Shown here: one piece after another, positions 1-7,511 of the stretch
Numbering within the stretch: position 1 is the first letter of the stretch
How the letters are laid out: every line of letters begins with the position of its first letter
IMG/VR virus record: IMGVR_UViG_2778261448_000009
Location: 1-35,006 of that record
DNA length: 35,006 nucleotides
Origin: a virus
Taxonomy: Duplodnaviria > Heunggongvirae > Uroviricota > Caudoviricetes
Reading direction: 5' to 3' (one strand)
Notes under the pieces: model-generated
The model's input: the letters and a program-made list of their open reading frames with translations, nothing else
The model's database searches: none
What the model was told of the DNA's origin: nothing
Translations under genes and position numbers: made by a program

Positions 1-942
1 TTATTGGCAGTAAGAAAAGTTAGTACCATACATTTCATCATGAAGCATTGCAGCATTGCGTTTCTGTTCTTCTTCCTCGTCTTCTACATCACTAGAGAAA
101 TAGGATTTTCCCTTGAAGGAACGAAGCAATTGCAGTGCAGCCATCGGATCACGCATCACATCGATTTTCACTTCTACTTCATCATTTGCGGCCTCATCAG
201 CCGCGTTTTCAACTACTGCTACCGGAGCAACTTCTTTAGCTTTCAGTTCTTCAATCTCAGATTTCTGTGCTTCAATAATCTGGTCTTTTTCTTCCAGTGC
301 AGCTTTCAGTTCTGCGATCTGTGCTTCCAGTGCAGCAAAGCGATCTTCAACAACAGGAGAAACAGCATTAACCTGTGCTTCCAGTTCCAGAAATGCTTCG
401 CAAGATTCAATACGTTCTTTCTCTTCACCTTCATAAGCAACCAGTTCTACAACTTCTTTTTCGGTAGCGTGGCTGTTAAAGAATACAGCAAAGTAAGGAT
501 TGCCGGATTTAGTGAAGTTCAGTTTAGCTTTTCCGGTAACTTCTTTACGACGACCGAAGGTGATCTGGCAATCAGCGGTATCCTGAAAATCCATGTTAGG
601 AGCGGAAACGATAGCAGTATCACCAGCAATAACCAGGTGGAACAGTTCAGAAGAGTTCTTAACGGTGAAAGTAACGATGTGGTCTACTGCAACGTCTTTA
701 GCAGGTTTAACGCGGTCGATTGCTTTACGAATGCCGTTAGGCAGTTTACCGTCAACACCAAAGCCAGCCGCGATCAGTGCTTCACGATGTGCTTTAAAGC
801 CAGCGAAAGCGGATTTCTGCTGTGCAAAGGAAACATGAGCAACAACTTTCGGCTGAATCTTCTTGTTTGCTTCGGTTCCAAATTTGATAACTGCTTTAGC
901 GTTGGTTACTTCGTTAGTGAAAAAGTTAGCGGAAAATAACAT
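1..942 (-). CDS. hypothetical protein, 313 aa: N-terminal globular region, central coiled-coil (AALEAQIAELKAALEEKDQIIEAQKSEIEELKAK), acidic C-terminal stretch
   Basis: Complete minus-strand ORF; revcomp shows AGGAG 8 nt before the ATG at 942-940 and a TAA stop at 3-1. The plus-strand ORF 4-939 is low-complexity antisense. Function not recognised. Confidence 0.6.
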   Translation of the reverse strand: MLFSANFFTNEVTNAKAVIKFGTEANKKIQPKVVAHVSFAQQKSAFAGFKAHREALIAAGFGVDGKLPNGIRKAIDRVKPAKDVAVDHIVTFTVKNSSELFHLVIAGDTAIVSAPNMDFQDTADCQITFGRRKEVTGKAKLNFTKSGNPYFAVFFNSHATEKEVVELVAYEGEEKERIESCEAFLELEAQVNAVSPVVEDRFAALEAQIAELKAALEEKDQIIEAQKSEIEELKAKEVAPVAVVENAADEAANDEVEVKIDVMRDPMAALQLLRSFKGKSYFSSDVEDEEEEQKRNAAMLHDEMYGTNFSYCQ

Positions 943-1056: not shown

Positions 1057-1239
1057 TTACCACACCTCTGCGGTAATCTTTACGCGAATATCATACTTCT
1101 TTAAGAGTTTATGAAAGGTTGATTTATCGATACCCTCATTTTTAAACCACTCTTCAATTCTCACACCCGGCGTTAACTCAAAGTAGCGTTTAGCCATTTC
1201 TAAGATGATTTCGCGAGTGAACTTAACAGGTCGTGCCAT
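1057..1239 (-). CDS. small helix-turn-helix-like DNA-binding protein, 60 aa
   Basis: Complete ORF with TAA stop; the segment GIDKSTFHKLLKKYDIRV looks like an HTH recognition helix. Function inferred from the motif only. Confidence 0.45.
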   Translation of the reverse strand: MARPVKFTREIILEMAKRYFELTPGVRIEEWFKNEGIDKSTFHKLLKKYDIRVKITAEVW

Positions 1240-1702
1240 CTCGAATCCTCCTACAATGTGGATTAATGATTTCTTAAAAAAGAGCGTTAACCGCTCACTA
1301 TTATTTATATGGGGATTGTATTTTATTTTTCAACCCCTCACATTTATCTCTTATATATGTATTTATAACAGAGATATGTTAAAATGTTATTCAGATGTTA
1401 TCAGACGTGTTAAATGTGTTAAACCGCAGCACGAATTGCTAAAGCGGAGAGCACGAATTAACCAAATTGATGTATATTCAATCAATTTAGAAAAAGGCAT
1501 AGCACTTTTTGCTAAAGCGGTGAGCATTAATTGAGCTATGAATTGTAAAGATTTGTTACAAGATTTTCTCTCAGATCCAAATCTTCACAGACATATAACA
1601 ATTTAACACGGTGATAACAATAGGAAGGAAAATCGGTAAATTTTCACTTTCAATACAAATATTATAACATATTTATCTCTAATTGTCAAGTGTAGCACCG
1701 AT

Positions 1703-1751
1703 CCTACACAGTGTCAACAAAGGATTTTCAAACCTACACTAGCCCTACACT
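1703..1751. repeat. CCTACAC repeats (3 copies) with a GTGTAG/CTACAC dyad
   Basis: CCTACAC at about 1703, 1733 and 1744; dyad AGTGTAG-caccgatc-CTACACA at about 1690-1712. Confidence 0.5.
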
Positions 1752-1933: not shown

Positions 1934-2064
1934 CGGGGAATCGGGCGTGCATAGATATTATATAACACATTCGCTACGCTCATGTGTAAAACCAAAAACA
2001 ACAAATAACCAAAAAGATATTAGGAGGGCTTTGCCCGACTGCGCGAAGCGCCAACCAATTGCTT

Positions 2065-2304
2065 CTAGTAACAACTAATTTAAACTAGATGATACTAGAT
2101 GGTCTTAGAAGGAATTAACTAGTTTGCTCGCTCGCTTCGCTCACTCTCAAACGTCTGCGACGCCACTGCGTGGCATCGAGAATCACTTCTGAAAGGATTT
2201 TCTTGAAAGGGATTTTAAACTAGTTACTAACTGATTCTAGAAAGATAGTAATAATCACTTTGAAGATAATAGTAGTTAACTGGTTACTAGATGATTCTAG
2301 ATCA
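2065..2304. repeat. CTAG-rich repeat cluster (8 CTAG in about 240 bp) with direct repeats ACTAGATGAT and TGATTCTAGA, interleaved with GC-rich dyads
   Basis: CTAG at 2065, 2085, 2095, 2119, 2220, 2237, 2287 and 2297; ACTAGATGAT at 2084 and 2286; TGATTCTAGA at 2232 and 2292; GCGAAGCG (2045) inverted as CGCTTCGC (2133); GCCACtgcGTGGC at about 2162-2174. Confidence 0.75.
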
Positions 2305-2359: not shown

Positions 2360-2561
2360 TAAATTGCTTCCGGATTATTATTTCTCCAAAAGAAAGATTC
2401 TTATATTCTAAAGATACTTCTTCGTTTTGATGATGATTTAATCAAAATCTATGAAGGAGGCGAAGCCGACTGAATACCAATTCCTTTCAAATTAGACAAA
2501 AATTTCTCGTTATAAATAATAGTGAACTTACTTTGATTCACTTTTTTAGAGGATTTCCACT

Positions 2562-3011: not shown

Positions 3012-3046
3012 TTTAGGTCAACCCTTTGGCGTCTTGTCAAGGGGTA

Positions 3047-3075
3047 TTGACAAAATTTTCTGACTTTTTTATGAT
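3047..3075 (+). promoter_or_regulatory. sigma70-like promoter: TTGACA, 17-bp spacer, TATGAT
   Basis: Exact -35 hexamer at 3047-3052 and near-consensus -10 at 3070-3075; further TTGACA/TTGTCA boxes at 3034 and 3084; lies upstream of the 3132 gene. Confidence 0.5.
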
Positions 3076-3131
3076 TATCGCACTTGACAACTTTGAACCT
3101 ATTTGACCTAGATTTGTAAAGAGGATGTAAC

Positions 3132-4414: not shown

Positions 4415-4420
4415 TTAATC

Positions 4421-4451
4421 GCCCGGCGCATAATTGCGCTGGGCTTTTTTG
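4421..4451 (+). terminator. rho-independent terminator after the Rha gene
   Basis: Stem GCCCGGCGC/GCGCTGGGC with one mismatch, loop ATAATT, then TTTTTT. Confidence 0.6.
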
Positions 4452-4462
4452 TATCTGATGCA

Positions 4463-4568
4463 TCCAGATTTGGATTTCTAGAAAGAATCAACCACTTAGA
4501 TAGATACGCTGAACTTTAAGCACATCCCCTCAGTTTTGAGGGCATCTATAGATCAGTCCAAATCTGGA
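4463..4568. repeat. perfect 12-bp inverted repeats TCCAGATTTGGA / TCCAAATCTGGA enclosing an 82-bp segment with an internal hairpin
   Basis: Arms at 4463-4474 and 4557-4568; internal hairpin CCCTCA-GTTT-TGAGGG at about 4528-4543; the element lies between two convergent terminators. Confidence 0.7.
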
Positions 4569-4610
4569 CTCAACTTAGAAATGAGCGCAGTTTTGCGCCG
4601 ATTGTTTTAC

Positions 4611-4638
4611 ATACAAAAAAGCCACTCCGAAGAGTGGC
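4611..4638 (-). terminator. rho-independent terminator for the minus-strand genes, UUCG loop
   Basis: Minus strand reads GCCACTC-TTCG-GAGTGGC followed by TTTTTT. Confidence 0.65.
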
Positions 4639-4653
4639 AAAGAGAATCAAAAC

Positions 4654-4887
4654 TCAAAAACCTGTTGCTTCTACGATCTGACCATCACCGATCTGAACAT
4701 AGAATTTAATGTCTAACTTCTTCATATTCTTATAGAATTGGGCGATTGAGATCCCATGTTCACTAAGAATCTGTTCTTTCGCTTCCTTACCACGATCCGC
4801 TGTATAGTAAGCGTAGGCAATATCAGCCATCTGTTCAGCGTTAAAACGGCAAGGACGACCGCGAGTAGCTTTAGTAGTCATAGTCAT
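4654..4887 (-). CDS. small putative DNA-binding protein, 77 aa
   Basis: Complete ORF ending in TGA; N-terminal TRGRPCRF and an HTH-like ISIAQFYKNMKKLDI segment. Confidence 0.5.
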   Translation of the reverse strand: MTMTTKATRGRPCRFNAEQMADIAYAYYTADRGKEAKEQILSEHGISIAQFYKNMKKLDIKFYVQIGDGQIVEATGF

Positions 4888-4915: not shown

Positions 4916-5521
4916 TTATTTAGAGGACTTACATTTTATCGGAAAAAGTTCTCCATCGTCAATACTCATAAAGAACTCTACCTTAATCCCGTACTTCCTC
5001 AGCCGTGAATAATATGTACCCCGACTAATATCAACCTTGCGAAGCACTTCGAAGAACCCTGTAGGATCGTTGTAATAGTGGCTATATTTCACGTTAGCGA
5101 GTTCAACGAATAGTTCCCTTGTATCACCATAGCCTTTCTTGAAAGCCTCGTTACGATAGCGTGTAATTGCGTGATTCAATCTCTTCTGTTTCAACACTTC
5201 TCGGATCGGTGTCCACTGCAAACGATAGATAGGACCGTCATCCACTCGATAATAACGCTTGATATCAAAATCAAACCAATCTCGGACTCTCCGAAACTCT
5301 GTATGTGATGTTCTATGCTTCTTAAAGAAGTTGTGAACGTCTGTATAACCATTATCGCGGTAAAACTCTATTAAAATCTCTTTCGCTTCCTCACGACTAA
5401 AGCCAGATGTTGTGTAGTCGGTTTTTAAATGCTTATGCTTAACTGGCAAACGATATTCATGATCGGTACAACAAGACAAGGCTAATTCTACTTCATCTCT
5501 TTGTTGCTGATTAATTAGCAT
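4916..5521 (-). CDS. hypothetical basic protein, 201 aa, with HTH-like segments
   Basis: Complete ORF with TAA stop; segments such as [14 protein letters not shown] resemble the HTH of the 60-aa protein at 1057-1239; function unknown. Confidence 0.5.
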
Positions 5522-5606
5522 ACAACCCCCTTTAATTAATACCCGTATTTATCAAAATATCAACAATTTAATAAATACCTTCATATTTCGTAATGAGGGT
5601 AATTAC

Positions 5607-7511
5607 ATGAAACTGATTTCAAATAAGGCAAAATTAAAAAAGATTCTCAAAAATGCAGCCAAATATATTACGCCACCGCCTAAGCTCCTTCCTTCTGAAT
5701 GGTGCGAAGCGAATCTAACGCTAGTCGATGGTCCTCGTGCTGGGGATAAAGTTAAATTACTGTCATTTCAGAAAGGCATGATTGATGCTCCTTTCCTTGA
5801 GAAGAAAAAGAAGTACGTTTTTTGTACGAGTGCACAGATCGGAAAGACGACCATCATGTCAGGGATTATGTTTAACCAGATGGCAAACGATCCGTGTAAT
5901 ATCATTATCGGGCAAAGTACCGCTAAAGAAGTGGCTATGTACTTGAATACTAAGATCCGTCCTTCTATTGAAGCATGTCCGGCATTACAGGAAGTGGTAA
6001 CAGATAAGAATGATCGTAATGCGGTAAACAACAATAACCAGATTCAGCTAAAAACAAACCATTTCCTTTACATGGTTTCTTTGACCAGTCCTTCAAGTTT
6101 GCGCGGGCGTACTGCCAAGTTAGGGATTGTAGACGAATGCGACGCAGCAACAATCACCGAAGAAGGTTGCCCGGTGGCACTAACTGCAAACCGTTTAACT
6201 ACCTTTGGTGATGAAGCTCGATTGATTGTTTCTAGTACCCCGACCAATAAGCTGGGAATTATTAACCAGCAATGGTTATCAAGCGATATGCGTATGTTTT
6301 TTGTTCCGTGTCCTCATTGCGGGGAACACCAGGTGATCGAGTGGGAAAACGTACAGTTTGAATGGCGTAACATTGATGGTAAGAACTTACCCGATCCTGA
6401 TACCGCTCGTTATATTTGCCCCCACTGTAAGAACGCATGGACAGAAGGAGAGCGGATCAGGGCGGTGGCACAAGGAGAGTGGAGAGCAACCCGTGAAAGT
6501 GAAGTAGCAGGATTCTGGATCAGCCGTCTGTATTCACCTTTCAGCACGATCCGCGCTTGTGTGGTTGATTTTAGTCATGCGTGGCAATCCTTTGATTTAC
6601 AATCATTTTATAACACCGTGTTAGGCAAGGTATACGACGATCAGGACACGGCAGTAGAAGCAAATGAACTGGAACAACTCAAAACAGATGTTTCTATCGA
6701 GAATATCCCTGATGACGTGATTTTCTTGTGTGCGGGTACTGACCAGCAATTAGATCGCGCAGAAACTACAATCATGGGCGTGGCAAAGGATAAGATTTAT
6801 ATTCTGGATCATCGCAGCTTTTACGATCATAACTGTGAACGATATGAATCCCCTGTATGGGATAGATTAATCAACTTCCATAAAACCAAATTTACTACTG
6901 TATCGGGTGATCGTGTTCCTATGCTCGCCAGCTTCCTTGATACATCGAACGGTCGATTCACTCAAGCCGGATACCGTATTTGCGGCAAGTGGAAGAACTT
7001 ACACGCTATCAAAGGTAGTTCTGCTGGTAACGCTCCGATCATTCCGGTTAAACCTACCCGCACAGGTGGTCATGAATTGCTTATGTTGGGTGTTAACGTG
7101 GGTAAAACTGCATTTCGTGAAATGTTGGCTAGGAACCTGAAAGATAATCCTCATATTAGCTTAGAAATATCAGACACCGTTCCTGATGATTATTTCGATC
7201 AGCTTTTAAGTGAATCTGTTAAGCGTACTACTACTGGCGTGAGATGGGTAAAGAACCCAGGCGTTAGGAACGAGGCGCTCGACTGCGCCGTGTATGCTAC
7301 AGCGGCTTCTCGCTACGTTCTTTCAAAAATGTCATGGGATAAACTCATTGCAATGAAAGACAGCTTAAACCGTGTTGTCGAAGAACCCGTAAAAGCTCCT
7401 AAATCGCAATCTAACGAGCAAATCGAAGAAACTAAGCCAATCACACGACCACAACGTCAAAACATCGCCAGACGTCCAAATAGAGGACGTAGCTGGATAA
7501 CATCGTTCTAA
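5607..7511 (+). CDS. terminase large subunit, lambda GpA family, 634 aa
   Basis: Motifs shared with my recollection of lambda gpA: CPHCGEHQV (lambda ACPHCGEEQ), [14 protein letters not shown] (lambda YSPFTT), [10 protein letters not shown] (lambda GIDSQLDRYE), [15 protein letters not shown] (lambda RRNEALDCFVYALAA). RBS GAGGG before the ATG. Confidence 0.85.

Follow-up and report, generated by a model that had tools for sequence, protein, structure and literature searches.

In the oriV of the IncQ plasmid RSF1010, iterons bound by RepC are accompanied by two single-strand initiation (ssi) hairpin signals on complementary strands (PMC8567376), and mini-hairpins of the GCGAAGC/CCGAAGG type occur at priming or initiation sites in the G4 origin, RSF1010 ssiA and the N4 promoters (PMC13037366). 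Here we describe a non-coding region of related layout in an uncharacterised prophage of Escherichia coli. The DNA analysed (IMG/VR record IMGVR_UViG_2778261448_000009, positions 1 to 35,006, class Caudoviricetes; hereafter the window) is nearly the entire genome of a temperate siphovirus of approximately 37 kb, and contains a gene-free control region of 1.3 kb (1240-2561, no strand assigned; hereafter the gap) with divergent operons on either side: the minus-strand genes orf60 and orf313 border it on the left and the plus-strand gene orf149 on the right. The gap holds a dense cluster of CTAG tetramers (2037-2304) that an earlier note on this DNA had interpreted as a selected protein-binding array. 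The reading that we favour, tentatively and with the chances still somewhat against it, is that the cluster is a layer of a composite element within an iteron-type replication origin or an early-control, initiator-binding region. The region as a whole is an undescribed form of a familiar type of element, and its interest lies mainly in the pairing of the DNA module with a neighbouring protein and in a cluster of mini-hairpins, not in the CTAG count.

The likeness to the IncQ oriV (RSF1010 and R1162) begins with tandem direct iterons, which here are six copies of TTTTGCCCCTGAA (1746-1880) with an inverted copy at 1924-1939. The features of the IncQ origin itself are iterons bound by the cognate initiator, adjoining GC-rich and AT-rich stretches and two ssi hairpins (PMC8567376), and its ssiA has a CCGAAGG mini-hairpin (PMC13037366); two hairpins of the gap, hp5 and hp6, read CCGAAGG on the minus strand. 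The two loci differ in that the phage region is without RepA, RepB' and RepC homologues and without sequence similarity to the plasmid origin, in that two to three short hairpins stand on each side instead of one 40-nt ssi, and in that the element lies in an integrated phage, where its CTAG-word spacer is missing from a sister module.

With iteron replicons, the lambda origin and oriC, the region shares a gene for a specificity protein beside its own promoter and an inverted repeat, together with iterons and AT-rich short tandem repeats. The 13-mers of oriC each begin with the palindromic tetramer GATC, and can be compared in this respect with the CTAG-bearing tandem units. Unlike these origins, the region has no DnaA boxes and no winged-helix Rep fold, and its units are 10-bp repeats bearing CTAG. 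With the N4 early promoters, which are DNA hairpins read by a virion RNA polymerase, the hairpins in turn have in common 4-6 bp stems, a 3-nt GNA loop (N, any nucleotide), a C:G closing pair and clustering in non-coding DNA on a defined strand (PMC13037366). When the N4-type definition (a 5-7 bp stem and a purine-centred 3-nt loop) was applied, the stems here were 4-6 bp long and the loops GAA, GTA or GCA, with a centre that is not always a purine. A gene for the N4 virion RNA polymerase would not fit a 37-kb genome, and neither an open reading frame (ORF) of approximately 3,500 aa nor an RNA polymerase match was found in the window.

Word repetition is the non-random feature of the CTAG cluster

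The eight CTAGs (2065, 2085, 2095, 2119, 2220, 2237, 2287 and 2297) fall within 236 bp (2065-2300), and all eight occur in the context WCTAGW (W, A or T). When 64 sites, the number found in the window, were placed at random 20,000 times, eight were never found in 240 bp and seven were found once; 5,000 dinucleotide-preserving shuffles of 2037-2304 contained a mean of 1.86 CTAGs and a maximum of seven, but never eight. The density on which the earlier note had remarked was therefore borne out, and the genome-wide count that it had proposed as a check showed that CTAG is under-represented, with 64 copies in 35 kb where base composition predicts 129 and a Markov estimate 81, and is clustered beyond random placement. 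The repeated words and GC-rich palindromes that the note had listed were also found, namely ACTAGATGAT at 2084 and 2286 with a variant copy at 2094, TGATTCTAGA at 2232 and 2292, and GCCACTGCGTGGC at 2162-2174. However, the note had placed two inverted GC-rich arms between the halves of the cluster, and this was incorrect, as GCGAAGCG (2043-2050) lies to the left and CGCTTCGC (2133-2140) to the right of the left CTAG half.

The eight CTAGs cannot be counted as independent, because they have been multiplied through tandem and direct repeats of a few words. They can be reduced to approximately four words, which are ACTAGATGRT in three copies, TGATTCTAGA in two, AACTAGTT in two (inverted) and TTCTAGTAAC, and the multiplication took the form of 10-bp tandem units (2074, 2084 and 2094) and a 24-bp direct repeat (2218-2241 and 2278-2301, 88% identical). 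Four independent words against 1.86 expected do not constitute a significant excess (Poisson P of approximately 0.12), and therefore the repeats, not CTAG, are the signal: what is non-random is the repetition of words rather than the tetramer. For CTAG biology this is a caution that a few duplicated words alone can generate a striking tetramer excess.

Arrangement of iterons, promoters and AT-rich arrays in the gap

From left to right, the gap contains leftward promoters, iterons, an A-rich stretch, hp1 and hp2, the left CTAG array, hp3, hp3b and hp4, two TGAAAGGNATT boxes, the right CTAG array, hp5 and hp6, an 80-bp element resembling phage RB49 DNA, hp7 and a rightward promoter. The leftward promoters (1661-1717, minus strand) consist of a perfect sigma-70 sequence, TTGACA-17-TATAAT with TG (1689-1661), and a second site (1717-1689), and they are abutted by GTGTAG-N8-CTACAC (1690-1709). 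The iterons adjoin this promoter, which is that of the protein gene co-varying with the module (below). No promoter or terminator was predicted within 1720-2490.

The left CTAG array (2063-2125, no strand) is an AT-rich spacer in which the three 10-bp units are followed by a degenerate CTTAG unit at 2104, and it includes an imperfect 36-bp palindrome (2064-2099; inverted pair I4, repeat family D2). Around it lies a composite inverted repeat (2037-2146, no strand), the arms of which (2037-2050 and 2133-2146, containing GCGAAGCG and CGCTTCGC, respectively) form the inverted pair I7, with 14 nt that are 86% complementary. The right CTAG array (2218-2302, no strand) is built on the 24-bp direct repeat and is interleaved with ATCACTT boxes at 2182, 2254 and 2301; its GC content of 27% places it among the gap's most AT-rich parts. 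A putative Fur box at 2244-2262 (14/19 match) was dismissed, being one of eight such matches in the window and present in one allele only.

The leftward promoter of this prophage matches the sigma-70 consensus perfectly and has an extended -10, and orf60 is preceded by an untranslated leader of approximately 420 nt (1240-1650), part of which (1310-1621) varies with the module. Leader- or RNA-based immunity exists in P4 and P1, and the orf60 leader recalls such immunity.

A strand-polarised cluster of mini-hairpins

The AT-rich arrays are flanked by short GC-rich triloop hairpins. On the plus strand, hp1 (GGGC-TTT-GCCC) and hp2 (GCGC-GAA-GCGC) occupy 2026-2051, and the hp1 loop is GTA in most relatives. 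To the right of the left array, at 2133-2174, are hp3 (GCGAAGC on the minus strand), hp3b (CGTC-TGC-GACG) and hp4 (GCCAC-TGC-GTGGC), all with GNA loops on the minus strand, and at 2331-2359, also assigned to the minus strand, are hp5 (ATCCC-TTC-GGGAT) and hp6 (GCAACC-TTC-GGTTGC). The hairpins are no less unusual than the CTAGs: of the 14 perfect GC-rich triloop hairpins in the window, five lie inside 2026-2343, and these five include every one of its four c-GNA-g/c-TNC-g hairpins closed by a C:G pair. The GNA loop is on the plus strand in hp2 and hp7 (and in hp1 of most relatives, the window itself having TTT) and on the minus strand in hp0, hp3, hp3b, hp4, hp5 and hp6, so that the loop strand switches from one side of the left CTAG spacer to the other. 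The hairpin groups are short and are not 40-nt inverted copies of each other, although their GNA loops are on opposite strands. Mini-hairpins with GNA loops packed so closely and polarised by strand would be a rare natural example of such DNA structures among double-stranded DNA phages.

Between lineages the stems of hp1 and hp2 are kept or differ on both sides, with CGGC/GCCG in module B and GCC/GGC in the distant relative DCP80 (both described below), while the loop variants remain GNA: hp2 has GAA or GTA in the A and B lineages, and hp6 has GAA or GCA on the minus strand, its loop being TGC in two relatives (L021 and L007). Otherwise hp5 and hp6 are conserved across A and B. A formal covariation count on hp1 and hp2 was dropped, as MAFFT misregistered the DCP80 hairpin and the sample was too small. 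When 2015-2365 was folded and compared with shuffles, the two strands were equally stable (z of approximately -4.1 and -4.3), which argues that an inverted repeat acting at the DNA level fits better than an RNA made from one strand.

A structured non-coding RNA, such as an antisense or immunity RNA in which the hairpins and the long-range pairing of GCGAAGCG with CGCTTCGC form in the transcript, is in our estimate very unlikely. The fold far more stable than shuffles (z of approximately -4), the changes on both sides of the stems between lineages and an extended hp4 stem with a G:T pair on the minus strand only would be in agreement with it; on the other hand, stability is equal on both strands, no promoter was predicted to read into 2020-2360 on either strand, and the triloops are of the DNA-stable GNA type rather than UUCG or GNRA tetraloops. 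A T-run, which is a feature of the phage's ordinary terminators, follows none of the hairpins of the gap, and an Rfam search gave no match overlapping 1240-2561 at E<=1.

The module is exchanged together with the neighbouring protein

The gap was compared among 20 IMG/VR loci, further IMG/VR matches, several assembly contigs and one annotated genome. Module A, the version in the window, is characterised by TTGCCCCTGAA iterons, the left CTAG array and hp4 as GCCAC-TGC-GTGGC. Module B has a 53-bp spacer of approximately 45% GC with no CTAG, and 9-14 CCTACAC boxes as counterparts of the iterons; its hairpins stand at the same places (hp1 CGGC-GTA-GCCG, hp4 ACGCC-TAC-GGCGT) between the same GCGAAGCG/CGCTTCGC arms. 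In a third version (L015 and L125) the iteron counterparts are TCCCCGT boxes, and there is one different hairpin. The left CTAG array is confined to module-A relatives, 12 of which are nearly invariant across 2020-2180 while their flanks vary; the exception, L004, has lost exactly one 10-bp unit. The right CTAG array is found in both A and B in several alleles with four, three or one CTAG, most relatives having three. In L015, which has one, the homologous word is ATGATTCAAGATCACTTT with CAAG in place of CTAG, and in L004 CCAG replaces CTAG at one site. The exact left-array word was confined to the present prophage family.

The protein encoded beyond the leftward promoters changes with the module. 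In the orf313 product (1-942, minus strand) the N-terminal domain is variable and is accompanied by a coiled coil, an acidic stretch and a C-terminal tail. Between A-type orf313 and B-type orf331 the coiled coil and the C-terminal tail are held in common, whereas the N-terminal domains are unrelated. Protein type corresponded to module type in 18/18 A contigs and 10/10 B contigs without exception, and even the mosaic L014, in which an A-like segment lies between the protein gene and the module, obeyed the rule. The left half of the module is exchanged as a unit together with the 313- or 331-aa protein. Hence orf313 or orf331 and its module of iterons, hairpins and spacer constitute a directly testable specificity pair.

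The distant relative DCP80, with 45% identity in the large terminase subunit (TerL), has GGGC-GTA-GCCC and GCC-GAA-GGC followed approximately 58 nt later by GCCTTCGGC, with scattered CTAG words, and GCCGAAGGC...GCCTTCGGC is found at the place equivalent to the composite arms. The DCP80 record (L001/L104, PQ671644.1, 'Escherichia phage DCP80') looks chimeric: its first ~25 kb are a siphovirus structural module syntenic with the window, and the rest is T4-like (motA, two rIIA copies, gp44 and gp41). Because the record is chimeric, its start is unusable as a genome terminus. No relatives of DCP80 were found in IMG/VR, and scans of genome contigs with TerL detected only relatives at <=31% identity.

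These comparisons bear on the possibility that the cluster is non-functional, having arisen where AT-rich words slipped and were duplicated in a graveyard of regulatory cassettes prone to recombination, and that it persists as something tolerated. The precedent would be the shuffling mediated by promoter/stem-loop cassettes (PeSLs) in T4-type phages of the RB49/phi1 kind, where repeated intergenic cassettes with sigma-70 promoters and stem-loops stand at mosaic junctions (PMC2839356, PMC4122927); the 80-bp piece of the gap is 79% identical to RB49 intergenic sequence. A PeSL itself is a Gn-loop-Cn stem-loop in a near-perfect promoter followed by a Shine-Dalgarno sequence and ATG, whereas the CTAG arrays are without a predicted promoter (2037-2304) and without a downstream ORF, and the stems here are mixed GC triloops. 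A lack of function would account for the loss of the CTAG excess when repeats are collapsed, for a copy-number change of exactly one 10-bp unit and for right-array alleles with CAAG or CCAG in place of CTAG, and it accords with the paralogy of 2005-2064 and 2437-2486, with the 80-bp piece common to RB49-type phages and with the mosaic junctions that flank the control region. It does not readily explain why 2020-2180 is almost invariant in the 12 module-A sequences while the flanks vary, or why module B and the distant DCP80 show the same ordered and nested layout with hairpins. CTAG has also persisted despite its supposed erosion towards CCAG by very-short-patch repair in E. coli, a process reportedly put forward by Bhagwat and McClelland in 1992. 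On balance we regard the non-functional explanation as rather unlikely, and rank it just after the operator array considered below.

A candidate origin or early-control region

The origin or initiator-binding region was ranked first because the layout of the gap matches the grammar of iteron-type origins, the closest case being the IncQ oriV: a leftward promoter overlapped by an inverted repeat is followed by six to nine direct iterons, an A-rich stretch, hairpins and AT-rich 10-bp units. According to this scheme, the orf313-type protein or the adjacent small helix-turn-helix (HTH) protein encoded by orf60 would bind the iterons, the AT-rich and TpA-rich CTAG repeats would supply an easily melted or bent segment, and the hairpins, extruded on opposite strands to its left and right, would serve as strand-specific signals such as priming sites. 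CTAG would matter only as a flexible TA step within an AT-rich 10-bp unit that has been copied several times, and not as a recognition tetramer. Judged from layout and sequence comparison, the gap may be regarded as a candidate for origin function.

A number of results weigh against this assignment. The orf313 product shows no DNA-binding fold, no winged-helix Rep fold and no RepC homology, and PHROGs and Pfam scans, which covered window ORFs of at least 100 aa and several smaller ones, detected no primase or replicative helicase gene, the only helicase being of the UvsW type. The DnaA box TTATCCACA, with one mismatch or fewer allowed, is absent from 1266-2561, a single one-mismatch site lying at the left edge of the gap (1257-1265), and the integration host factor (IHF) consensus WATCAANNNNTTR is absent from 1240-2561. 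The spacer of module B is free of CTAG and L015 is without the whole hp1-hp4/spacer unit, so the family can do without the left CTAG array. On both flanks of the right array stand hairpins with minus-strand GNA loops, which spoils the symmetry, and linkage alone can explain the co-variation of adjacent DNA. Our confidence in an origin is low because orf313 has no Rep fold, because primase, DnaA and IHF components were not found and because the left array is dispensable. A more specific version, in which an IncQ-like strand-displacement origin is run by host enzymes, with orf313 or orf331 as an orphan initiator on module-specific iterons, the CTAG spacer as the melting region and the GNA hairpins, extruded on opposite strands, as entry signals for host primase or PriA in divergent leading-strand synthesis, seems to us improbable; if true, it would add a new family of initiators and show a phage with double-stranded DNA using mini-hairpins in a novel way.

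The main rival to the origin is an operator array of an immunity-like module, in which the words, the iterons or both would bind a phage regulator (a repressor, a Cro-like protein or a ribbon-helix-helix (RHH) protein) of divergent early promoters, and the swappable module would be the equivalent of a lambdoid immunity region. We consider it unlikely, although several features are in good agreement with it: the gap has a perfect sigma-70 promoter directed leftward on one side and promoter-like sites directed rightward on the other, module exchange takes the adjacent protein along, the TAGA-containing units in 10-bp phase look like tandem operators, and a classical repressor was not found elsewhere in the phage. 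Operators of the TrpR and Arc/Mnt/MetJ types are likewise made of short CTAG- or TAGA-containing boxes in helical phase. Nevertheless, the half-sites of the TrpR operator are 8 bp apart in GTACTAGTTAACTAGTAC, whereas the CTAG spacings here are 20, 10, 24, 17 and 10 bp; identity with the TrpR operator was rejected, as the ACTAGT-TAACTAGT context with CTAG pairs 8 bp apart was not found. In contrast to the Arc/Mnt/MetJ-type systems, no RHH protein was identified in the phage, and neither an RHH nor an HTH regulator could be tied to the arrays. On either side 200-450 bp separate the CTAG arrays from the closest predicted promoter, none is predicted inside them, the left array is missing in module B while the right array is allelic, and hairpins with GNA triloops are foreign to known operators.

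With respect to the selected protein-binding array of the earlier note, one part of the proposal held up: the repeats are genuine and phased at 10 bp, they are non-coding and lie between divergent promoters, and the left array co-varies with the neighbouring protein. The other part, that CTAG itself is the selected unit, was not supported, since the tetramer is absent or replaced in relatives. The note had reasoned that absence of the cluster from relatives with identical flanking genes would count against it, and ten relatives with the same flanking genes indeed carry a CTAG-free spacer between hairpins of the same kind, which counts in part against the proposal. A protein-binding or structural DNA array is plausibly a reasonable reading of the sequence.

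The module is not coupled to the terminase

A different role was considered for the GC-rich island, namely that it is the cohesive-end cleavage site of the lambda-gpA-type terminase, with the CTAG words as cosB-like sites for the small subunit. In outline, a GC-rich dyad with flanking short repeats in a phage with a gpA-type terminase resembles lambda cos (cosN and the R sites of cosB). TerL belongs to the gpA family, no recognisable gene for a small terminase subunit is located next to it, and in DCP80 two small ORFs and TerL follow immediately downstream of the homologous non-coding region. In addition, a 36,906-bp contig (L133 1-40; Logan SRR23081347) ends at approximately window position 2523, 39 bp upstream of the orf149 start, which could be either an assembly break or a hint of a terminus.

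In contrast to lambda cos, the region is not adjacent to the terminase genes: TerL lies 3 kb downstream of it, and the intervening genes, which include Rha and two on the minus strand, are variable and divergently oriented. It also behaves independently of the TerL allele. L002 has a TerL that is 99% identical yet carries module B, while in the prophage of E. coli ETEC1703 (L022) the gap is 98% identical and TerL only 57%, with a mosaic junction in the terminase gene (5607-7511; 23996-25900 in L022) at approximately 5654, about 48 nt into the gene. As judged from these sequences, module and terminase are inherited independently. An IHF consensus is absent from the gap, whereas 4486-4498 and 5558-5570, which are nearer to TerL, each have one; the other full-length contigs end at scattered positions or at the att side, and no common terminus recurred in the gap among seven assemblies of 35-38 kb. 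We therefore consider a packaging site quite improbable.

Two other intergenic regions are alternative cos candidates. One is 4415-4653, a conserved region with an IHF site (4486-4498), several hairpins and a 12-bp inverted pair, TCCAGATTTGGA (within 4461-4474) and TCCAAATCTGGA (within 4557-4570); it also holds the 11-mer TTCTAGAAAGA, which recurs at 2235. The other is 5522-5606, just upstream of TerL, with an IHF site at 5558-5570.

The right flank of the gap

The right flank (2373-2520, plus strand) consists of the 80-bp element, hp7 (2459-2467) and a promoter-like site (2493-2520) ahead of orf149. The 80-bp element (2373-2455) is AT-rich, contains TTTTGAT-N10-ATCAAAA and has its 79% identity with two intergenic copies in RB49. 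In the RB49/Krischvirus intergenic region the copies lie between a DprA-like gene and ORF165 (L023, RB49 97434-97848), and the orientation relative to the RB49 genes is opposite to that found here. The word CTTCTAGTAA is also shared with RB49, but other Krischviruses do not conserve it, and it was treated as a chance match.

The segments 2005-2064 and 2437-2486 are paralogous (TAT..AGGAGG-hairpin-CCGACTG...ACCAATT(G/C)CTT), and in several relatives hp7 bears the hp1 sequence GGGCTTTGCCC. A 37-nt inverted repeat (2317-2353 and 2453-2489), 76% complementary with a nearly perfect outer 16 nt (TGAAAGGWATTGGTAT), encloses hp5, hp6, the RB49-like element and hp7, and resembles the ends of a small inserted cassette.

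Genomic setting and neighbouring genes

The prophage of ETEC1703 sits inside ycdX, and the gap sequence was present in 57 of 5,426 complete E. coli genomes (approximately 1%), every time in the chromosome. A megablast of the region against plasmid and phage collections gave no match. Metagenome contigs of 37.1 and 37.6 kb display the excised gene order. The genes of the window include those for the lambda-gpA-type large terminase, a portal, a protease-capsid fusion, a tape measure protein, fibres similar to T4 gp37 and gp38, an endolysin, the UvsW-type helicase and a large serine integrase. The Prokaryotic Genome Annotation Pipeline (PGAP) calls no gene in the part of ETEC1703 that is homologous to the gap. 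An ORF of 109 codons at 1205-1534 (plus strand) was rejected as a gene, since PGAP does not annotate it and most relatives carry stops or frameshifts within it. Sensitive blastn returned nothing significant for 2015-2365, the only match of the region being the 80-bp RB49-like piece.

Homologues of orf313 and orf149 were either near-identical or restricted to the family, and all were annotated as hypothetical. Pfam and PHROGs gave only weak HTH hints for orf60, orf77, orf149, orf110 and orf201, and the same scans revealed no recognisable replication initiator or repressor elsewhere in the phage. In a family without a recognisable repressor, initiator or small terminase subunit, the sole large non-coding region is the obvious place in which to seek such functions. 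A resolvase/transposase-like HTH motif (G-I-s...FYk.mKK) is common to the 60-aa and 77-aa proteins and to the C-terminus of the 201-aa protein, which are encoded at 1057-1239, 4654-4887 and 4916-5521, respectively, all on the minus strand. The intergenic region 3012-3131 contains three TTGACA hexamers and an 11/12 match to a sigma-70 promoter (3047-3075) ahead of orf110.

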